The position numbers and the translations under genes were made by a program. The notes under the pieces are model-generated. The model did no database searches, was not told the DNA's origin, and saw nothing but the letters and a program-made list of their open reading frames with translations. A stretch of 17,684 bases of DNA, from positions 1 to 17,684 of the IMG/VR virus record IMGVR_UViG_2667527666_000002. One strand, written 5' to 3'. Source of the stretch: a virus. Lineage: Duplodnaviria > Heunggongvirae > Uroviricota > Caudoviricetes. This document shows, piece by piece, positions 4,145 through 14,446 of this stretch (the stretch's first letter is position 1; the number at the start of each line of letters is the position of its first letter).

Positions 4145-4969
4145 TCAGGCGGTGAAAGTACCAATAAAGGTTTCTACTTTGCTGTCTTTGAATTTCTCAA
4201 CAAGCAGATCACGAAATTCGTTAGCCATTTCTTCCTGCACCGCTTCCAGCTGAATAATGCGCAGAACCAGTACAGGACGATCGCCAGTGATAATGCTGAG
4301 GCGTAATTTAAACGGACGTTCTTTCAGACCTTCAAACGGAACGCATTTAAATTCAAATGTCACTGGCATAATGTCTTTGGTCTTCGCTTCGACAGACTCC
4401 ATCAGGGAGCGTTTGCCGCTGAAGTCATTATCTTCAAAATCAGCGGTCTGGTTCGCTTCAATTGTGATTTTACGGATCGCCGCAGCCGCTTTGGTTGCCT
4501 GAATGGCGTCACCATTAGCATCAAAGCCCACAAGGTAGTCGGCCCAGTCTTCAATCCATTCTGCCAGTGACTTCTGGGAGTTACGCTCGCCGTTAACAGA
4601 CAACAGGGCAGAGAACGGTGCTGTCTTTTTCAGTTTGAGAGTGGCGGTGTTATCTGCGTGACCTGGTTCATCAATAGTACCCAGGTTAAGCACACTGACG
4701 GCTCGCATATTATCGGCATCGATAAAGCAGCGGGTGCCTTCATCTGCAAGATCTTTAGAATAACGGGTAAAGTCATCGATGCTGGCAGTGGAAAGCGCAC
4801 CACGGAAACGGAAGCGATTTAAATTAAATTTTTCCAGATCATGAATGCGGAAATTCTCAGGCAATGCCACAGCATCGGCACCAATCTTACTGATAATTTC
4901 ATTAACACCCTGAGCAGAAATAAGGGCATGGATTTGATTAATTGCGGTTGCGTCTAAGTTCTGAGACAT
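4145..4969 (-). CDS. Hypothetical phage protein, 274 aa (YfdQ-like)
   Basis: Long ORF with ATG at 4969 and GAGGA 8 nt upstream; size and neighbours (120-aa gene upstream, HD gene downstream) match the recalled yfdP-yfdQ-yfdR order of CPS-53. Confidence 0.7.
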
Positions 4970-5034
4970 AATAAGTCCTCACTATATAAAGATATTCAGT
5001 GATGAGATAAATAATCAGTTTATTAAGAACGATA

Positions 5035-5397
5035 TTAATGACCTGCTGCGCGTAGTTTTCCGTCAGGTTCACCGGCAAGAGTCAGTAATTGTCCCTGGTC
5101 TTCCTGCAGAATAGTCAGGCGACCACCGCGATTGACATACATCGGCGTTTCGGTGGTGTCTTCTTCGGAAATTTTCCCGCGGTTAGTTGGGCGAACATAT
5201 GAGAGTTTGTGTTTGATTTTCACACGGTTCTCATCAAACGGTTCGATTTCCAGGTTGAGCGAGACCTTACCTTTGGTTTTCGTGTTCATCACACCGGAAG
5301 CGACTTCACTGAGAACAGCGCCGATTTTGGTTTCAAATACGCCGCCGTCCAGCTCCCCGATAAATGCCTGCACATCAGTACTGCGTTCGCTAGCCAT
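5035..5397 (-). CDS. Hypothetical phage protein, 120 aa (YfdP-like); first gene of the leftward early operon
   Basis: Start set at the internal ATG at 5397 (MASERSTDVQ...) preceded by GAGGAG 9 nt upstream; the longer 197-aa ORF in the track has a non-protein-like N-terminal extension running into the structured leader. Confidence 0.65.
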   Translation of the reverse strand: MASERSTDVQAFIGELDGGVFETKIGAVLSEVASGVMNTKTKGKVSLNLEIEPFDENRVKIKHKLSYVRPTNRGKISEEDTTETPMYVNRGGRLTILQEDQGQLLTLAGEPDGKLRAAGH

Positions 5398-5445
5398 TTT
5401 GCTGCTCCTCATCATATCGACCCTGCAAGGTCGGTTGGTTTCTCC

Positions 5446-5580
5446 ACAAAACAGAGAAGAACACCTGCGGTGACTGCCGCCCGGATGGATTGGGTTATGA
5501 GCCCGTCGTCCGGTGATTCTCTTCTCTGTTTTGTAAAAAGAGCGGTACCAGCCGGAAGCAAGGGTACAAACTGGTACCGC
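5446..5580 (-). other. Structured element: perfect 15-bp inverted repeat (5446-5460 / 5520-5534, 59-nt spacer) followed by a 10-bp stem (5542-5551 / 5571-5580); candidate cis-acting RNA in the early-left leader
   Basis: Both inverted repeats read directly from the sequence; they lie about 50 nt upstream of the first early-left start codon in a region with no convincing ORF. The strand is assumed from the surrounding operon. Confidence 0.35.
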
Positions 5581-5999
5581 CAAAGCAGTGGCTGTTGTGG
5601 TGGGGTTGTCACTCAGGCGTATGGTCAACCTGACAATCCGGTGCCCTCAACGGGGAAAGAGTAACCCCGCCATACTTACCGCCGCGCCATTTCGCGGATT
5701 ACCACAACGCTGAGAGCACTTAGCCAGTTACGGCACCACACTTTGTCGCGGCTCCATAAATGCCCTCATCGTTGCACCCTGGTCTCTTCCCAGGCGTCAA
5801 ACCGAATCGCCACGCTGGTTAGGCGTCTTATCAGCATCATCATTGACTTGCACATTCCGGCTACCTGGTTTGTTTGCCCGAGCAAGGAGTGGATTGTCCC
5901 CTTTAACGTCCCCAGACCGCTAACGACGCATGTGCCATACGCCGTGTTACAACCAAATTTTGTTAGTACCTTGTTTGTTTGTCTGGAAAGAAAGATAAA

Positions 6000-6050
6000 A
6001 TGAAGTTGCGCATTATGCAAGTGTTTTTGTTGCGAGATATGCAATTTAAA
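6000..6050 (-). promoter_or_regulatory. Candidate OL/pL: two operator-like sites TTGCGCATTATGCAA (6006-6020) and TTGCGAGATATGCAA (6030-6044)
   Basis: Two 15-bp TTGCG-N5-TGCAA dyads 24 bp apart, matching the motif found in the cI-cro intergenic region; located just beyond the end of cI where lambdoid phages place OL/pL. Promoter -35/-10 hexamers are not confidently assigned. Confidence 0.45.
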
Positions 6051-6061
6051 GGGTAATGAAA

Positions 6062-6079
6062 AGCCACCTTTGGGTGGCT
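6062..6079 (-). terminator. Candidate terminator of the repressor gene (stem AGCCACC / GGTGGCT, 4-nt loop)
   Basis: Hairpin about 20 nt beyond the cI stop on the minus strand, followed there by UUU then CAUUACCCUUUAAAUU; the U-tract is short, so the call is moderate. Confidence 0.4.
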
Positions 6080-6099
6080 AATTGATGAGGAGGTAAGGG

Positions 6100-6792
6100 T
6101 TAATTGTGTCGCTTAAGGGTTTGTGACTGGCTGATTAAGACCTTTCCAAAGACCATAAACCGGTGTTCATTTTCGCTGGTAATTCCCCATTCACGGTAAA
6201 TCTGGTTATCAGAAATCACCAGTAGTTTGTCAGGTATCATTTGCAGTCGTTTGACATAAATTTTATCATCAAAACCAAATACATAGATACCATCTCCATC
6301 AAACTGATTGATACTGACATCAACGAAGATGAGATCTCCTGGCTCAATGGTTGGACACATACTGTCCCCACGAACGTTGATAACTTTAATGTGATTGGCT
6401 GGCCGTCCGCCAAACATCGATACAGCATTATCAGTTCTGTATTCAATGGCATGAATCACATCAATGACATCACCGCCCTGGATAAGGCCATTTCCCGCAC
6501 TGGCACTGACATCCAGCATTTCAATACGGAATACATCCTTCACCTGCGCAACATCCTCACTAATACTGTTTTTACATACAGTATTACTTTTGACGTCTGA
6601 GGTAAAGAGATCAGCAATATCAACACCTAAGCTCCTGGCAATATTACTCAGGGCTTGTTCAGTGAATTGTTTCTGCTTACCTGTTTCCAGGCGTGAGATA
6701 TTCGCCGCATCCACTCCTATTGCTTCAGCGAGATCGGCGATTTTCATGTTCTTCGCCTGGCGAAGTTGTCTGACTCGGTTTCCTATGTTCAT
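6100..6792 (-). CDS. cI: CI-like prophage repressor (N-terminal XRE-type HTH, C-terminal S24/LexA-type self-cleaving peptidase), 230 aa
   Basis: N-terminal HTH (IADLAEAIGVDAANISRLETG); Ala-Gly cleavage-site candidate (SASAGNG); catalytic Ser in GDSM and Lys in YVKRL; divergent from a Cro-like gene. Confidence 0.9.
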   Translation of the reverse strand: MNIGNRVRQLRQAKNMKIADLAEAIGVDAANISRLETGKQKQFTEQALSNIARSLGVDIADLFTSDVKSNTVCKNSISEDVAQVKDVFRIEMLDVSASAGNGLIQGGDVIDVIHAIEYRTDNAVSMFGGRPANHIKVINVRGDSMCPTIEPGDLIFVDVSINQFDGDGIYVFGFDDKIYVKRLQMIPDKLLVISDNQIYREWGITSENEHRFMVFGKVLISQSQTLKRHN

Positions 6793-6889
6793 GCGTTTAT
6801 TACATTTCTTTATTGCGCGTTAAGCAAATCAACTTGCGCAAAATATTTGCGTGAAATAATATGCTCATCACGCAATATGTGGAGGTCAT
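6793..6889. promoter_or_regulatory. Immunity-region operator/promoter (OR with divergent pRM and pR): operator TTGCGCGTTAAGCAA (6813-6827), palindrome CGCAAAATATTTGCG (6837-6851), candidate pR -35 TTGCGC (6834-6839) and -10 TAATAT (6857-6862)
   Basis: 97-bp divergent intergenic region between cI and cro containing dyad repeats of the same TTGCG family as the OL candidates, with centres 24 bp apart; sigma70-like hexamers with 17-bp spacing upstream of cro. Confidence 0.6.
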
Positions 6890-7150
6890 ATGCAATCACC
6901 ATTACGGAATGTGCGTAAGGCGCACGGATTTACTTTGCAGCATGTTGCTGCTGGCGTTCAGGTCAATCCAGCGACGCTGAGTCGTATTGAAAGACTGGAA
7001 CAAATTCCATCTATCGATCTTGCAGAACGTCTGGCCAATTTTTTTAAGGGTGAAATCAGCGAAATGCAGATTCTTTATCCGGCACGTTTTCAATCTAGCC
7101 AAAACCAGAATGGGTTTAAACCACAGGAACAGGAGGTAAGCCGTGGGTAA
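6890..7150 (+). CDS. cro: Cro-like XRE-family HTH regulator, 86 aa
   Basis: ATG at 6890 with GGAGG 5 nt upstream; HTH motif (LQHVAAGVQVNPATLSRIE); divergent from cI. Confidence 0.8.
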   Translation: MQSPLRNVRKAHGFTLQHVAAGVQVNPATLSRIERLEQIPSIDLAERLANFFKGEISEMQILYPARFQSSQNQNGFKPQEQEVSRG

Positions 7151-7700
7151 TCATCACTGGAAAGTGGAAAAACAGCCTGAGTGGTACGTGAAAGCTGTCA
7201 GAAAAACTATCGCGGCGTTGCCGGGGGGTTACGCTGAAGCTGCTGAGTGGCTGGATGTAACAGAGAACGCATTATTTAACCGCCTTCGTGCCGATGGCGA
7301 TCAGATTTTCCCGCTGGGATGGGCAATGATTTTACAACGTGCTGGTGGCACTCACTTCATTGCCGACGCTGTGGCGCAGTCTGCAAATGGCGTCTTTGTG
7401 TCTCTTCCTGACGTCGAGGATGTGGACAATGCCGATATTAACCAGCGTTTACTGGAAGTCATTGAACAGATCGGCAGTTATTCAAAACAGATTCGTTCGG
7501 CAATCGAAGACGGTGTAGTGGAACCGCATGAGAAGACAGCAATTAACGACGAGCTGTACCTCTCAATTTCGAAGCTGCAGGAGCATGCAGCACTTGTCTA
7601 CAAAATTTTTTGCGTTTCAGAAAGTAATGACGCCCGCGAGTGTGCAGCTCCGGGCGTCGTGGCGTCGATTGCTTCTGGTTGTGGAGAAACTAACGCATGA
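7143..7700 (+). CDS. Phage regulatory protein, 185 aa, at the CII position (CII / YdaT-like)
   Basis: GTG start at 7143 with AGGAGGT 6 nt upstream; 8-nt overlap with the end of cro; its stop overlaps the next ATG (ATGA). Function inferred from position only. Confidence 0.6.
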
Positions 7701-8035: not shown

Positions 8036-8055
8036 AGGTCGGTCATGAGCACTAA
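7834..8055 (+). CDS. Hypothetical small protein, C-terminal frame (...[39 protein letters not shown]...); true start unclear (a TTG near 7876 follows GAAGGAG)
   Basis: Protein-like frame whose stop at 8053-8055 overlaps the next gene's start at 8045 by 11 nt, as expected for a genuine operon member. Confidence 0.3.
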
Positions 8056-8386
8056 ATTAACCGGCTATGTATGGGATGGTTGCGCTGCGTCAGGCATGAA
8101 ATTATCCAGCGTGGCAATTATGGCCCGCCTGGCTGATTTCAGTAATGACGAAGGTGTGTGCTGGCCATCAATTGAAACTATTGCCCGTCAGATTGGCGCG
8201 GGGATGAGTACCGTCAGAACGGCTATCGCACGGCTGGAAGCAGAAGGCTGGTTAACGCGTAAGGCGCGTCGCCAGGGTAACCGCAATGCGTCGAATGTTT
8301 ATCAGCTTAACGTTGCGAAGCTTCAGGCAGCGGCATTTTCTCAACTGTCAGATTCTGACCCGTCAAAATCTGACGCATCAAAATGA
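8045..8386 (+). pseudogene. Replication-initiator (O-like / winged-HTH N-terminal domain) gene, 3'-truncated by the IS629 insertion
   Basis: N-terminal HTH-type domain ([13 protein letters not shown]...SIETIARQIGAGMSTVRTAIARLEAEGWL); the ORF ends on the TGA formed by the first three bases of the IS inverted repeat (8384-8386); no C-terminal domain. Confidence 0.6.
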
Positions 8387-8425
8387 ACCGCCCCGGGTTT
8401 CCTGGAGAGTGTTTTATCTGTGAAC

Positions 8426-9316
8426 TCAGGCTGCCAGATCATCGTTTCCGATGGAAGCATAATAAGCTTTTTCTGCTTCTGCCGGAGGAGTATGGCCCAG
8501 CCTTTCCAGCAATCGTCGATTGTTATACCAGTCCACCCACGTGAGTGTGGCCAGTTCCACTTCTGCACGGTTTTTCCAGCTCTTACGGTGTATTACCTCC
8601 GCTTTGTAAAGACCATTGATGCTCTCCGCCATCGCGTTGTCATACGAGTCGCCTGTACTTCCTGTTGATGCCAGTAATCCGGCTTCCTTAAGCCGCTGTG
8701 TGTAGGCCAGCGATACATACTGAGAACCTTTATCACTGTGATGGACCGTGCCGGACGGTCGACGGGCCCATAACGCCTGCTCCAGTGCATCCAGCACGAA
8801 TGTCGTTTCCATGGACGATGAGACCCGCCACCCCACGATGTATCCGGCAAACACATCAATGATGAACGCCACATAGACGAAGCCCCGCCATGTGCTGACG
8901 TAAGTAAAATCAGCCACCCACAGCTGGTCAGGTCGTTCTGCCACGAACTGACGGTTTACGCGGTCGCCTGCGGCAACGGCTTTCCGGCTGATGGTCGTAC
9001 GGACCTTTTTACCCCGGAGAACACCGGCAAGTCCCATAACCGCCATGAGACGTGCCACAGTGCATCTGGCCACTCTGATACCTTCCCGTAACAACTGACG
9101 CCAGACTTTACGCACACCGTATACCTTGTGATTTTCATCGTATACGCGCTGTATCTCTTTCTTCAGCCAGTCATCGCGCTGCGCACGGGCACTGCGTTTA
9201 TCCGGATGATGTCGCTGTTGCTGACAGTGGTAATACGTTGACGGGGCAATATGCAGTTCGCTGCATAGCGGTCCGACCCCGTACTGCTCACGCAGCTTAT
9301 CCAGCAGTGGCATCAT
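8426..9316 (-). CDS. IS629-like transposase OrfB (DDE/integrase catalytic domain), 296 aa
   Basis: Translation [29 protein letters not shown]... with a DDE-type core (WVADFTYV ... HSDKGSQY ... [10 protein letters not shown]). Confidence 0.9.
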
Positions 9317-9639
9317 TTTTTCCAGAGGCGGTCGAACTCCGCCTTCGCAAAATAAGCGGAAGCCTGGCGAAGGATATCGTTACTGCGGCGCAGTTCACGA
9401 TTTTCACGTTCCAGCTCTTTCAGACGCTGACGTTCAGCGGTGGTGAGCCCTCCATCACCGCCCCCGGTATCCCGCTCATGCTGGCGAACCCAGACACGCA
9501 GAGTCTCCGGCGTACAGCCAATCTTTGGAGCAATGGAACAAATTGTCGCCCATTGTGAGTCATATTCGCTCTGACTTTCCAGAACCATACGGACTGCCCG
9601 TTGACGGACTTCGGGGGAAAAACGAGTATTTTTAGTCAT
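9313..9639 (-). CDS. IS629-like transposase OrfA (HTH), 108 aa
   Basis: Translation [42 protein letters not shown]...; identical to the orfA of the second copy at 17358-17684. Confidence 0.9.
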
Positions 9640-9693
9640 CCTGTTTACCTCTTTCTCAGGAAGTTTAGTCTCCAGGATTCCCGGGGCGGTTCA

Positions 9694-10238
9694 ATTAACA
9701 CCCTGTTTGGCCCGTTTGTTCTGGATCTGTTCACTGACGGTGATAACGCCAAATGTGCTGCGTATTACACGGCGGAAGACAACGCGCTGGCGCATGACTG
9801 GTCAGAACGCCTTGCGGAGCTTAAAGGTGCTGCCTTTGGTAATCCCCCATACAGCCGCGCCAGTCAGCATGAGGGGCAATACATCACCGGCATGCGTTAC
9901 ATCATGAAGCATGCCAGTGCCATGCGTGATAAAGGCGGGCGCTATGTTTTCCTGATCAAAGCTGCCACCAGCAAGTGTGGTGGCCGGAAGATGCAGATCA
10001 TATTGCTTTTATTCGCGGGCGTATTGGTTTTGAACTGCCTGCCTGGTTTATCCCGAAGGATGAGAAGCAGGTGCCGACAGGCGCTTTCTTCGCTGGTGCT
10101 ATTGCTGTTTTCGACAAGACCTGGAAGGGACCGGCAATCAGCTACATCGGGCGCGATGAACTTGAGGCATGTGGTGAGGCCTTTCTGGCGCAGGTTCGCC
10201 AGCAGGCAGAAAAACTGGTCAGGGAGATGGCGGCATGA
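9694..10238 (+). pseudogene. Phage Dam-type DNA N6-adenine methyltransferase remnant: 5'-truncated at the IS boundary and frameshifted near 9960-9980
   Basis: Frame 1 immediately after the IS reads INTLFGPFVLD...FGNPPYS (NPPY catalytic motif); the C-terminal part (VWWPEDADHIAFIRGRIGF...) continues in another frame (ORF 9975-10238), whose stop overlaps the next gene's ATG. Confidence 0.6.
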
Positions 10239-10561
10239 CGACGTTAACTCAATGCCAGCAGCAGGTGCTGGATATGCTGATTTCTTATCAGAAAGAACGT
10301 GGCTTCCCGCCAACCAATCAGGAGGTGGCAACCATGCTGGGATACCGTTCAGTGAATGCAGCGGTGGAGCATCTTCGCGCACTGGAGAAAAAAGGCGTCA
10401 TCACGATAAAGCGTGGCGTGGCCCGGGGCATCACGCTTCATACCGCGGTGAAGGACGACGACAGCGAGGCGGTCGGGATTATCCGCTCACTGCTTGCCGG
10501 TGAGGAAAACGCAAGGCTGCGTGCAGCCCACTGGTTACATGAGAGGGGCCTGAAAGTATGA
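10235..10561 (+). CDS. LexA N-terminal DNA-binding-domain-like protein, 108 aa, without peptidase domain
   Basis: MTTLTQCQQQVLDMLISYQKERGFPPTNQEVATMLGYRSVNAAVEHLRALEKKGVI resembles the LexA winged-HTH domain; no S24 domain follows; start/stop coupled to neighbours. Confidence 0.6.
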   Translation: MTTLTQCQQQVLDMLISYQKERGFPPTNQEVATMLGYRSVNAAVEHLRALEKKGVITIKRGVARGITLHTAVKDDDSEAVGIIRSLLAGEENARLRAAHWLHERGLKV

Positions 10562-13363: not shown

Positions 13364-14446
13364 TTAGAACTGGTAAACCAGACCTACAGCAACGATGTCA
13401 TCAGTATCAATACCAGCTGTTTTGGTAAACTTACTATCGTCAATTAAGTTGATTTTGTAATCAACAAAAGTGGACATGTTTTTATTAAAGTAGTAAGTAG
13501 CACCGACATCGACATACTTGACTAAGTCTCGGTCACCATGAACACCAAGGTCTTTACCTTTTGACTGAAGGTAAGCAACAGATGGGCGCAGACCGAAGTC
13601 AAACTGATATTGTGCTACTGCTTCAAAGTTTTGTGCTTTGTTTGCAATATGGTTATTACCAAAAACGGTCATATTCTGAGTTTCAGAATATGTGGTAGCC
13701 AGATAGATATTGTTCGCATCATATTTCAGGCCTGCAGCCCATACTTCCGCATTTTTGCCGGAGGCATTGAATTTGCTCTTACCATAGGCGACCTGACCGT
13801 CAGTGCGATCTGATTTAGCATAGGTTGCACCCACGCCGAATCCTTCATACTCATAAGTAGTGGAGAAACCGAAACCATCACCATTGGCTTCAGTTACGTC
13901 AGTGCGGTCATTTTTACCCTGATACTGAGCAGCAAAGTTCAGGCCATCGACCAGACCAAAGAAGTCGTTGTTACGATAAGTTGCAACACCAGTAGTGCGA
14001 CCAGTCATGAACACATCTGTTTGGGTCCAGGTATCACCACCGAATTCTGGCAGGACGTCAGTCCACGCACCGATGTCGTATGCTACACCGTAGTTACGGC
14101 CGTAATCGATTGAGCCGTAATCACCAAATTTCAGGCCTGCAAATGCAAGACGGGTTTTGTCTTTGGAAGAACCTTGAGATTCAGCGCGGTTGCCTTTGAA
14201 TTCATATTCCCACTGACCGAAACCAGTCAGTTGATCGTTGATTTGGGTTTCACCTTTGAAGCCAAGACGGGCATAAGTAGTATCACCATCATCTGCATCA
14301 TTAGAGGAGAAGTAGTGCTTAGCATTAACTTTCCCGTACAGATCCAGCTTGTTACTGTCTTTATTATAAATTTCAGCTGCCTGAGCAGACATCGCCATCA
14401 GTACTGATGCAGCTACAGCAGAAATTGCCACTGTTAATTTTTTCAT
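13364..14446 (-). CDS. General-diffusion outer-membrane porin, OmpC/NmpC/Lc family, 360 aa precursor
   Basis: Signal peptide ending AQA-AE; mature N-terminus [17 protein letters not shown] typical of OmpC-family porins; C-terminal ...VGLVYQF beta-barrel signature; opposite strand to flanking phage late genes. Confidence 0.92.

Follow-up and report, generated by a model that had tools for sequence, protein, structure and literature searches.

Candidate left operators of a lambda-type immunity region ahead of a noncoding early-left leader

Which DNA sites does the repressor of a lambdoid prophage recognize to the left of its own gene, and what does the promoter at those sites transcribe? This question is raised by a 17,684-nt stretch of a Caudoviricetes virus (IMG/VR record IMGVR_UViG_2667527666_000002), which we analyzed at full length and call the window, and in which two 15-bp dyads of the form TTGCG-N5-TGCAA stand beyond the 3′ end of a cI-type repressor gene. 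From comparisons of sequence, we regard it as very likely that these dyads are OL1 and OL2, the left operators (OL) of a lambda-type immunity region whose right operators (OR) lie between cI and cro. The arrangement is an ordinary lambda-type one, and the operators themselves are textbook biology.

Tandem dyads beyond the repressor gene

A preliminary description of this DNA had put two 15-mers, 24 bp apart, within 6000-6050 past the end of the repressor gene. Both are present, at 6006-6020 and 6030-6044, centered at 6013 and 6037 and 56 to 94 bp beyond the repressor stop codon (6100-6102). As typed, each dyad is imperfect because its fifth positions, R and Y, are not complementary. Across the 17.7-kb window, the pair provides the sole matches to TTGCG-N5-TGCAA; a shuffled window is expected to hold 0.10 matches, and two or more matches anywhere arose in 2 of 200 shuffles. 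The symmetric core TTGC-N7-GCAA is matched perfectly three times in the window (6006, 6030, and 6813), each time in one of the two noncoding stretches that flank the repressor gene. In approximately 1 Mb of phage and prophage DNA, chosen independently of the dyad, motif density was 14 per kb within the 130 bp flanking homologous repressor genes versus 0.025 per kb elsewhere. Extrapolated from this density, some tens to about a hundred isolated matches would occur by chance in a whole genome; a tandem pair 22 to 24 bp apart is not expected.

The same motif recurs between cI and cro, as had been claimed: OR3 has a perfect core, OR1 has one mismatch, and OR2 is a half-site here and nearly complete in relatives (TTGCGCAATTCGTAA). 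OR1 ends in GCAT family-wide because it overlaps the −10 element of the rightward promoter pR, and TTGCGCAAG at OR2 is invariant across the repressor family. The operator core shared by OL and the cI–cro sites is TTGCR-N5-YGCAA. The companion claim, that the two clusters match in geometry, stands only in part. The two good OR sites are 48 bp (2 × 24 bp) apart, but the OR centers (6820, 6842, and 6868) are spaced by 22 and 26 bp rather than by 24 and 24. Centering OR2 at 6844, which would give 24/24 spacing, inverts the order of its half-sites and is unsupported in relatives. A perfect dyad, GTGCG-N5-CGCAC, is also present at 6911-6925, inside the 5′ end of cro. At this position, 50 bp from the OR1 center, relatives carry a full operator-like TTGCGATTTTCGCAA or ATGCGATTTCCGCAA; the dyad might represent a fourth site or reflect no more than constraint on the coding sequence.

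An operator half-site forms the −35 hexamer in all three inferred promoters, pL, pR, and pRM. The proposed placement of pL is supported: TTGCAT and TATCTT are separated by exactly 17 bp on the minus strand, and TAnnnT is kept at that distance in most of the related loci described below. pL would be a sigma-70 promoter directed away from the repressor gene, albeit with a weak match to consensus; OL1 spans its −35 and spacer, which are core elements, and OL2 lies upstream of it. The pair is thus positioned past the 3′ end of the repressor gene and heads the leftward early operon, after the terminator and before the leader and yfdP. Its 24-bp spacing would suit cooperative binding of dimers. All three promoters match the consensus weakly and none was reported by the promoter scan; their support is positional conservation. 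The −10 of pRM, TGTAAT, is almost invariant across the family and ends 6 nt ahead of the cI ATG, which implies that the cI mRNA is leaderless or nearly so.

Two other promoter candidates were rejected. A rightward promoter from OL (TTGCGA at 6030, a spacer of 16 to 17 bp, and GGTAAT or GTAATG) matches poorly, is not kept in the Salmonella relative, and would direct transcription into the cI terminator. A scanned minus-strand promoter at 6883..6856 (TCCACA-16-TATTAT) appears fortuitous: its −10 mirrors the pR −10, and its unconserved −35 overlaps the complement of the cro ribosome-binding site.

Conservation of the sites and alternative readings

We compared the locus with relatives found in three ways. 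In the phages mEp460, Stx2a_1447, S.Typ Adana (84% repressor identity), Kp4873-4 (71%), and Flotzy (68%), the order is the same: repressor stop codon, hairpin with T run, dyad, 8 to 9 bp, dyad. All five were found in a phage collection by repressor protein; the last three are phages of Salmonella, Klebsiella, and E. coli, respectively. The five retain TTGC and GCAA and differ at the dyad centers, and the hairpin and T run at the position of the repressor terminator are kept in all relatives compared. A gene-blind scan of viral contigs for the pattern TTGC-N7-GCAA-N8/9-TTGC-N7-GCAA returned 80 loci (L011-L090). A repressor homolog (67-100% identity) is encoded by 37 of them, and in all 37 the pair lies 55 to 62 bp past its stop codon; the remaining 43 are unrelated sequences, several of them obvious repeats. 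Finally, 24 loci were fetched from species-representative genomes via repressor peptide patterns, with sources in Shigella, Citrobacter, Kluyvera, Buttiauxella, Trabulsiella, Klebsiella, Pantoea, Mixta, Rosenbergiella, Proteus, Serratia, and others. With one truncated locus and one outlier omitted, 22 of these, the five phage loci, and the window make up 28 repressor-ascertained loci from about ten enterobacterial genera.

Two sites 22 to 24 bp apart follow the terminator in 21 of the 28 loci, and in 22 the TTGCNN of the distal site is followed, at a distance of exactly 17 bp, by TAnnnT. OR1 and OR3, which were never used for fetching, carry 2.0 bits at each half-site position and little at their centers. 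Spacer bases vary even among repressors that are 97-100% identical, and TTGC and GCAA are fixed. OL layout varies within the repressor family. Some relatives have three OL sites rather than two, among them a Pantoea alvi locus (L142), in which they lie about 47-104 bp past the repressor stop codon; in two Dryocola loci a single site stands ahead of the terminator.

The repressor has the makeup of a LexA/S24-type phage cI protein, with a helix-turn-helix (HTH) domain, an S24 domain, an Ala-Gly cleavage site, and a Ser/Lys dyad; Ala99-Gly100, Ser144, and Lys181 are invariant across homologs. Its recognition helix is AANISRLETGKQ. The pattern (A/G/S)AN(I/V)SR(L/V)ETGKQK is almost invariant down to 54-60% overall identity, with N-terminal domains falling to 63-69%, a degree of conservation that fits a constant operator half-site. 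Wherever the helix ANISRLETGKQK is conserved, the half-sites and their spacing are conserved and the central bases are free. At the corresponding OL and OR positions, the heteroimmune phage mEp390 carries another dyad, of the GTAGGA-N4-TCCTAC type, with two copies past its repressor gene and three between repressor and cro; judged by its sequence, it is a natural specificity-swap control. The claim that the dyads define immunity specificity thus agrees with sequence comparison, and the way the motif follows the recognition helix and changes in mEp390 suggests indirectly that binding by the cognate repressor and Cro may set immunity. The recognition helix of Cro, PATLSRIERLEQ, has xSRxE in common with that of cI. 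BLASTP gives no significant alignment between Cro and the cI N-terminal domain, so this resemblance is an alignment by eye only. A PDB sequence search returned no close solved relative of the repressor or Cro; the repressor N-domain resembles generic 434-type HTH proteins only, and the C-domain matches UmuD′.

Could the protein that binds the dyads be something other than the S24 repressor, for instance Cro alone, the CII-like YmfL, or a host factor? Cro has an HTH and would be expected to share the operators anyway, and binding by the S24 repressor is itself a prediction. The sites, however, track the repressor gene at the nearly constant distance seen in 37 of 37 pattern-found homolog loci, the motif stays constant wherever the repressor recognition helix does, and mEp390, with a different repressor, has a different motif. 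The dyads show no likeness to LexA or CRP boxes. We therefore judge another binding protein improbable. Readings of TTGC...GCAA as a sigma-54, LexA, or CRP element do not fit.

That the TTGC elements are −35 hexamers only, with incidental dyad symmetry, is quite improbable. TTGCNN does serve as a −35 with a 17-bp spacer in all three inferred promoters, but the right half YGCAA, which stands 10 bp downstream, shows the same conservation as the left half at OR1 and OR3, and a −35 hexamer would not require it. Moreover, OL2 and OR1 are equally conserved without a −10 partner at the right distance and orientation, so promoter function cannot explain the conservation of OL2. We hold it very improbable that the dyads work at the RNA level, as small hairpins of a transcript such as one reading through from cI, rather than as DNA sites. 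Each dyad could form a stem of 4 to 5 bp, and an Rfam small RNA model grazes 5996-6085 at E = 6.9, far below threshold; yet the stems are invariant in sequence rather than covarying, one and the same stem recurs five times, on either side of cI, and because the dyads fall between the cI terminator and the inferred start of pL, they should be mostly untranscribed. Chance supplies single matches at the background density given above, but it is effectively refuted by the shuffled windows and by the recurrence of the pair, always similarly spaced from the repressor gene, in about ten genera.

Several observations weigh against the operator reading. The OL half-sites of L011-L090 are invariant by construction, since these loci were fetched by the dyad pattern; what carries the argument is therefore where the pair stands relative to the gene, together with the two unbiased sources, the protein-ascertained set and the OR sites. 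Six of the 28 relatives lack the arrangement. pL, placed by conservation, matches the sigma-70 consensus at 7 of 12 positions, which is why the promoter scan missed it, and the left half of OL1 doubles as its −35, so that conservation there could partly reflect promoter constraint. In this phage OR2 is reduced to a half-site, so that OL and OR are laid out differently. In the literature, we found no published operators for this repressor or for repressors of the mEp460, SfII, ST64B, or Stx2a_1447 type, and the site sequence was not found in any paper. Finally, the small RNA sRNA-17, a product of the equivalent leader, can be detected in a lysogen without induction (PMC7719688), so the leader may not depend on pL alone.

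If the dyads are OL1 and OL2, control would most likely work as in lambda. A repressor dimer would bind each through the recognition helix ANISRLETGKQ, and two dimers would bind the pair cooperatively at a spacing like that of lambda OL1–OL2. The dimer on OL1 would cover the −35 and spacer of pL and exclude RNA polymerase in the lysogen, and the repressor may loop to OR, about 800 bp away. Cro would occupy the same sites early in lytic growth. RecA-stimulated self-cleavage of the repressor at Ala99-Gly100 would release pL, which would then transcribe leftward, on the minus strand, through the structured noncoding leader into yfdP-yfdQ-yfdR.

Table 1. Features of the immunity region, the leader, and the adjoining genes in window coordinates
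Feature	Coordinates	Strand	Sequence or elements	Remarks
OL1, promoter-proximal left operator (putative)	6006..6020		TTGCGCATTATGCAA	minus-strand left half TTGCAT is the pL −35; position and half-sites conserved in homologous loci
OL2, second left operator (putative)	6030..6044		TTGCGAGATATGCAA	24 bp center to center from OL1; no −10-like hexamer after it
OR3	6813..6827		TTGCGCGTTAAGCAA	perfect TTGC-N7-GCAA; minus-strand TTGCTT is the pRM −35
OR2	6835..6849		TTGCGCAAAATATTT	left half-site TTGCG only in this phage; its TTGCGC is the pR −35; placed by homology
OR1	6861..6875		ATGCTCATCACGCAA	one mismatch; overlaps pR −10 and start
pL (inferred)	5992..6020	minus	−35 TTGCAT 6020..6015, 17-bp spacer, −10 TATCTT 5997..5992	start near 5985
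pR (inferred)	6835..6863	plus	−35 TTGCGC 6835-6840, 17-bp spacer, −10 TAATAT 6858-6863	from sequence and conservation
pRM (inferred)	6799..6827	minus	−35 TTGCTT 6827..6822, 17-bp spacer, −10 TGTAAT 6804..6799
Intrinsic terminator of repressor gene	6058..6079	minus	AGCCACC-CAAA-GGTGGCT then TTTTC	stem 6062-6079; between repressor stop and OL dyads
cI-type repressor, 230 aa	6100..6792	minus		intact; N-terminal HTH and C-terminal S24 LexA/UmuD-like domain; Pfam HTH_3/HTH_26 and Peptidase_S24
cro-like gene, 86 aa	6890..7150	plus		HTH_3 (Pfam)
CII/YmfL-like protein	7143-7700	plus
Module C, first element of pL leader	5772..5950	minus		covariance model R1, 175 bits; conserved sequence 5709-5960
Cargo B, four-way-junction fold	5586..5708	minus	closed by GUUGUGGU/ACCACAAC	cloverleaf-like; fold z-score only −1.09
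Intrinsic terminator in leader	5535..5581	minus	GGCGGTACCAG...CTGGTACCGC then TCTTTTT	3′ end of sRNA-17 in relatives
yfdP, first protein gene of leftward operon	5035-5397	minus		RefSeq annotation, locus identical over 5000-7200
yfdQ	4145-4969	minus		RefSeq annotation of identical locus

The leader RNA and its cargo

The structured region to the left of OL had been expected to fall in the leader of the early-left transcript. The leader (5398-5985, ~590 nt) is indeed noncoding, modular, and structured on the minus strand, and the transcript of a related prophage was detected with a strand-specific probe (PMC7719688). RefSeq annotates zero genes from yfdP to the repressor gene (5398-6099), and the open reading frames (ORFs) of this region (5743-6003 on the plus strand; 5766-6044 and 5412-5612 on the minus strand) were rejected as coding: they have no Pfam match, RefSeq leaves them unannotated, and substitutions in the stems are compensatory. 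G-U pairs in the leader RNA identify the folded strand as the minus (pL) strand. The leader terminator has its U tract on this strand, to which the published sRNA-17 Northern probe is antisense.

The first element of the leader, module C, is an RNA of conserved structure. RNAalifold on 13 diverse copies predicted 30 pairs, 11 of them with compensatory changes. In a five-helix model applied to 83 distinct sequences, 98.1% of cells are paired and both sides have changed in 14 of 26 pairs, in an alignment that was fitted to the model and so favors it; with partners slid by one to three columns as a control, pairing falls to 28-49%. A search of the leader (5300-6150) against Rfam 15 gave zero gathering-level matches and, at E ≤ 10, only three chance-level ones, and no relevant literature was found for the module C core sequence.

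Module C occurs in 1833 of 5426 complete E. coli genomes, at 2467 places, 554 of them on plasmids, and is unannotated among the E. coli matches listed. Viral contigs contain it at no fewer than 120 loci in each of two scans; searches with covariance model R1 covered the retrieved loci. It also occurs in P1-type phage-plasmids. In the C1-controlled ban operon of P1, it stands before ban and directly after tRNA-Ile2 (anticodon CAU; called Met by ARAGORN). Epsilon15-like phages, phiV10 among them, carry it ~70 nt ahead of tRNA-Arg. In Kp4873-4, Citrobacter prophages, and the heteroimmune lambdoid mEp390, it comes immediately after pL. Among 217 unique contexts, a tRNA lies upstream in 20, downstream in 33, and on the opposite strand in none.

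The slot after module C has exchangeable contents. Cargo follows the junction ...AGUGCUCUCAGC|GUUGUGG, and all cargoes are closed by GUUGUGG(UGA)/(UCA)CCACAAC. The slot that cargo B occupies in the window holds a real tRNA-Arg in phiV10, the published sRNA-17 (193 nt) in mEp460/RS218-type prophages, and several other RNAs elsewhere. Neither ARAGORN nor the Rfam tRNA model called cargo B a tRNA; the only tRNA they found was tRNA-Thr at 1369-1444. At 5531-5544, the terminator tail contains CGCTCTTTTTACAA, a string that may be taken as boxA-like. Between the leader terminator and yfdP, the window has a hairpin with a stem of ~21 bp (about 5447-5534, minus) that also occurs in SfV, SfIV, and ST64B.

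According to rapid amplification of cDNA ends, sRNA-17 starts at the cargo junction; the shared terminator forms its 3′ end. The 252 bp upstream of sRNA-17 were treated as its promoter (PMC7719688); this fragment corresponds to window positions 5709-5960, that is, to module C, without pL. With the start of the early-left transcript predicted and its strand fixed, sRNA-17 is re-framed as a probable part of the pL leader.

We tentatively entertain, as a possibility that we hold to be rather doubtful, that OL/pL heads an RNA cassette and not a lambda-type protein-coding early operon, with the ~180-nt module C first and exchangeable tRNA or tRNA-like cargo next (5586-5708 here, sRNA-17 elsewhere). 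If so, release of repressor would first switch on an RNA-based function. In this phage group without N, module C could, speculatively, act in cis to allow transcription from pL past the leader terminator, or it could direct processing of the cargo.

What the analysis adds is an operator consensus, a promoter map, and a definition of immunity for a repressor family for which we found no published operator. The family is common in E. coli, in Shigella (SfII), in Stx2a-converting phages, and in prophages of Salmonella, Citrobacter, Klebsiella, Pantoea, and Proteus, and homoimmunity among Stx2a and serotype-converting phages becomes predictable from sequence. The analysis also brings to light a structured RNA that lacks annotation and is present in a third of complete E. 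coli genomes; this leader RNA is of more interest than the operators.

The rest of the window places the immunity region in a lambdoid prophage that is entered from the left via tRNA-Thr(CGU). A 417-amino-acid ORF at the left end is probably proA, as we assume from its size and its adjacency to thrW. Window positions 5000-7200 are 100% identical to prophages of several E. coli chromosomes, 97-98% identical to phages PhiR47_1, mEp460, and Stx2a_1447/WGPS2, and 91% identical to Shigella phage SfII. The integrase gene (1462-2596, minus), 93-95% identical to the SfII integrase, adjoins tRNA-Thr and is split across two reading frames near 1703-1782, as either a frameshifted pseudogene or a sequencing error. 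In the region 8045-9639, an O-like replication gene is cut to residues 1-101 of 313 and followed by an IS3-family insertion element (8426-9639; orfA 9313-9639, orfB 8426-9316, and an ALIL frameshift pseudoknot at 9242-9358, all minus), and the next ORF (9601-10503) contains a Dam methylase domain. The replication module appears disrupted, and the prophage is probably defective with an intact immunity region. Situated between the lysis genes and a Q-like antiterminator, a complete OmpC/NmpC-type porin gene (13364-14446, minus; Pfam Porin_1, 505 bits) resembles moron-type cargo.

Comparison with known phage switches

The window shares with lambda its gene order (N-side leader, pL/OL, terminator, cI, pRM/OR/pR, cro), tandem dyad operators common to OL and OR, a repressor with an HTH N-domain and a self-cleaving S24 C-domain, and, as predicted here, a leaderless cI mRNA from pRM. 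It differs in having no N gene and a noncoding RNA as its pL leader: an N-like gene with nutL was not found in this leader, 5398-6099 having neither a RefSeq gene nor an ORF with a Pfam match. SfII, SfV, and SfIV of this phage group are reported to be without N (PMC3851460). The operator also differs, being 15 bp (TTGCR-N5-YGCAA) versus a 17-bp site of other sequence in lambda; there are two OL sites rather than three, and OL1 covers the −35 and spacer of pL and not its −10 side. The spacing of the window pair is that of lambda OL1–OL2, which are likewise 24 bp apart center to center. At OR, the window has spacings of 22 and 26 bp and a degenerate OR2. Lambda OR2 is centered at −42 of pRM, whereas that of the window is centered near −50, which makes activation of pRM uncertain.

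With two OL and three OR sites, the window resembles the lambdoid phage 933W, which, as Tyler, Mills, and Friedman reportedly described in 2004, has three OR sites and only two OL sites; the two presumably differ in repressor and operator sequence. By sequence, P22-type c2 repressors are the closest relatives found for the window repressor among those known to have a characterized specificity. The c2 repressor of ST160 is 42.9% identical to it over 99% of its length and has the same domain layout. The P22 operator, an 18-bp site of the TAAG-N4-CTTA type, is unrelated to TTGC-N7-GCAA.

For the leader RNA, the nearest described counterpart is sRNA-17 of E. coli K1 RS218, which lies in the equivalent pL leader of a mEp460-type prophage, on the same strand, with the same 5′ junction (CGUUGUGG) and terminator hairpin as window positions 5535-5708. 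The bodies of the RNAs differ, and the window shares about 67 nt; copies like that of the window were classed as "degenerative" by the authors of the sRNA-17 study (PMC7719688). A search of HK022 (20000-40751) with model R1, filters off, gave no evidence of homology to put, the best match reaching only 5 bits (E = 0.9); the leader RNA may be a functional analog of HK022 put. The architecture is identical in mEp390, which has module C, pL with two dyads, terminator, repressor, three dyads, and cro, as the window does, and which differs in its GTAGGA-N4-TCCTAC-like dyad.

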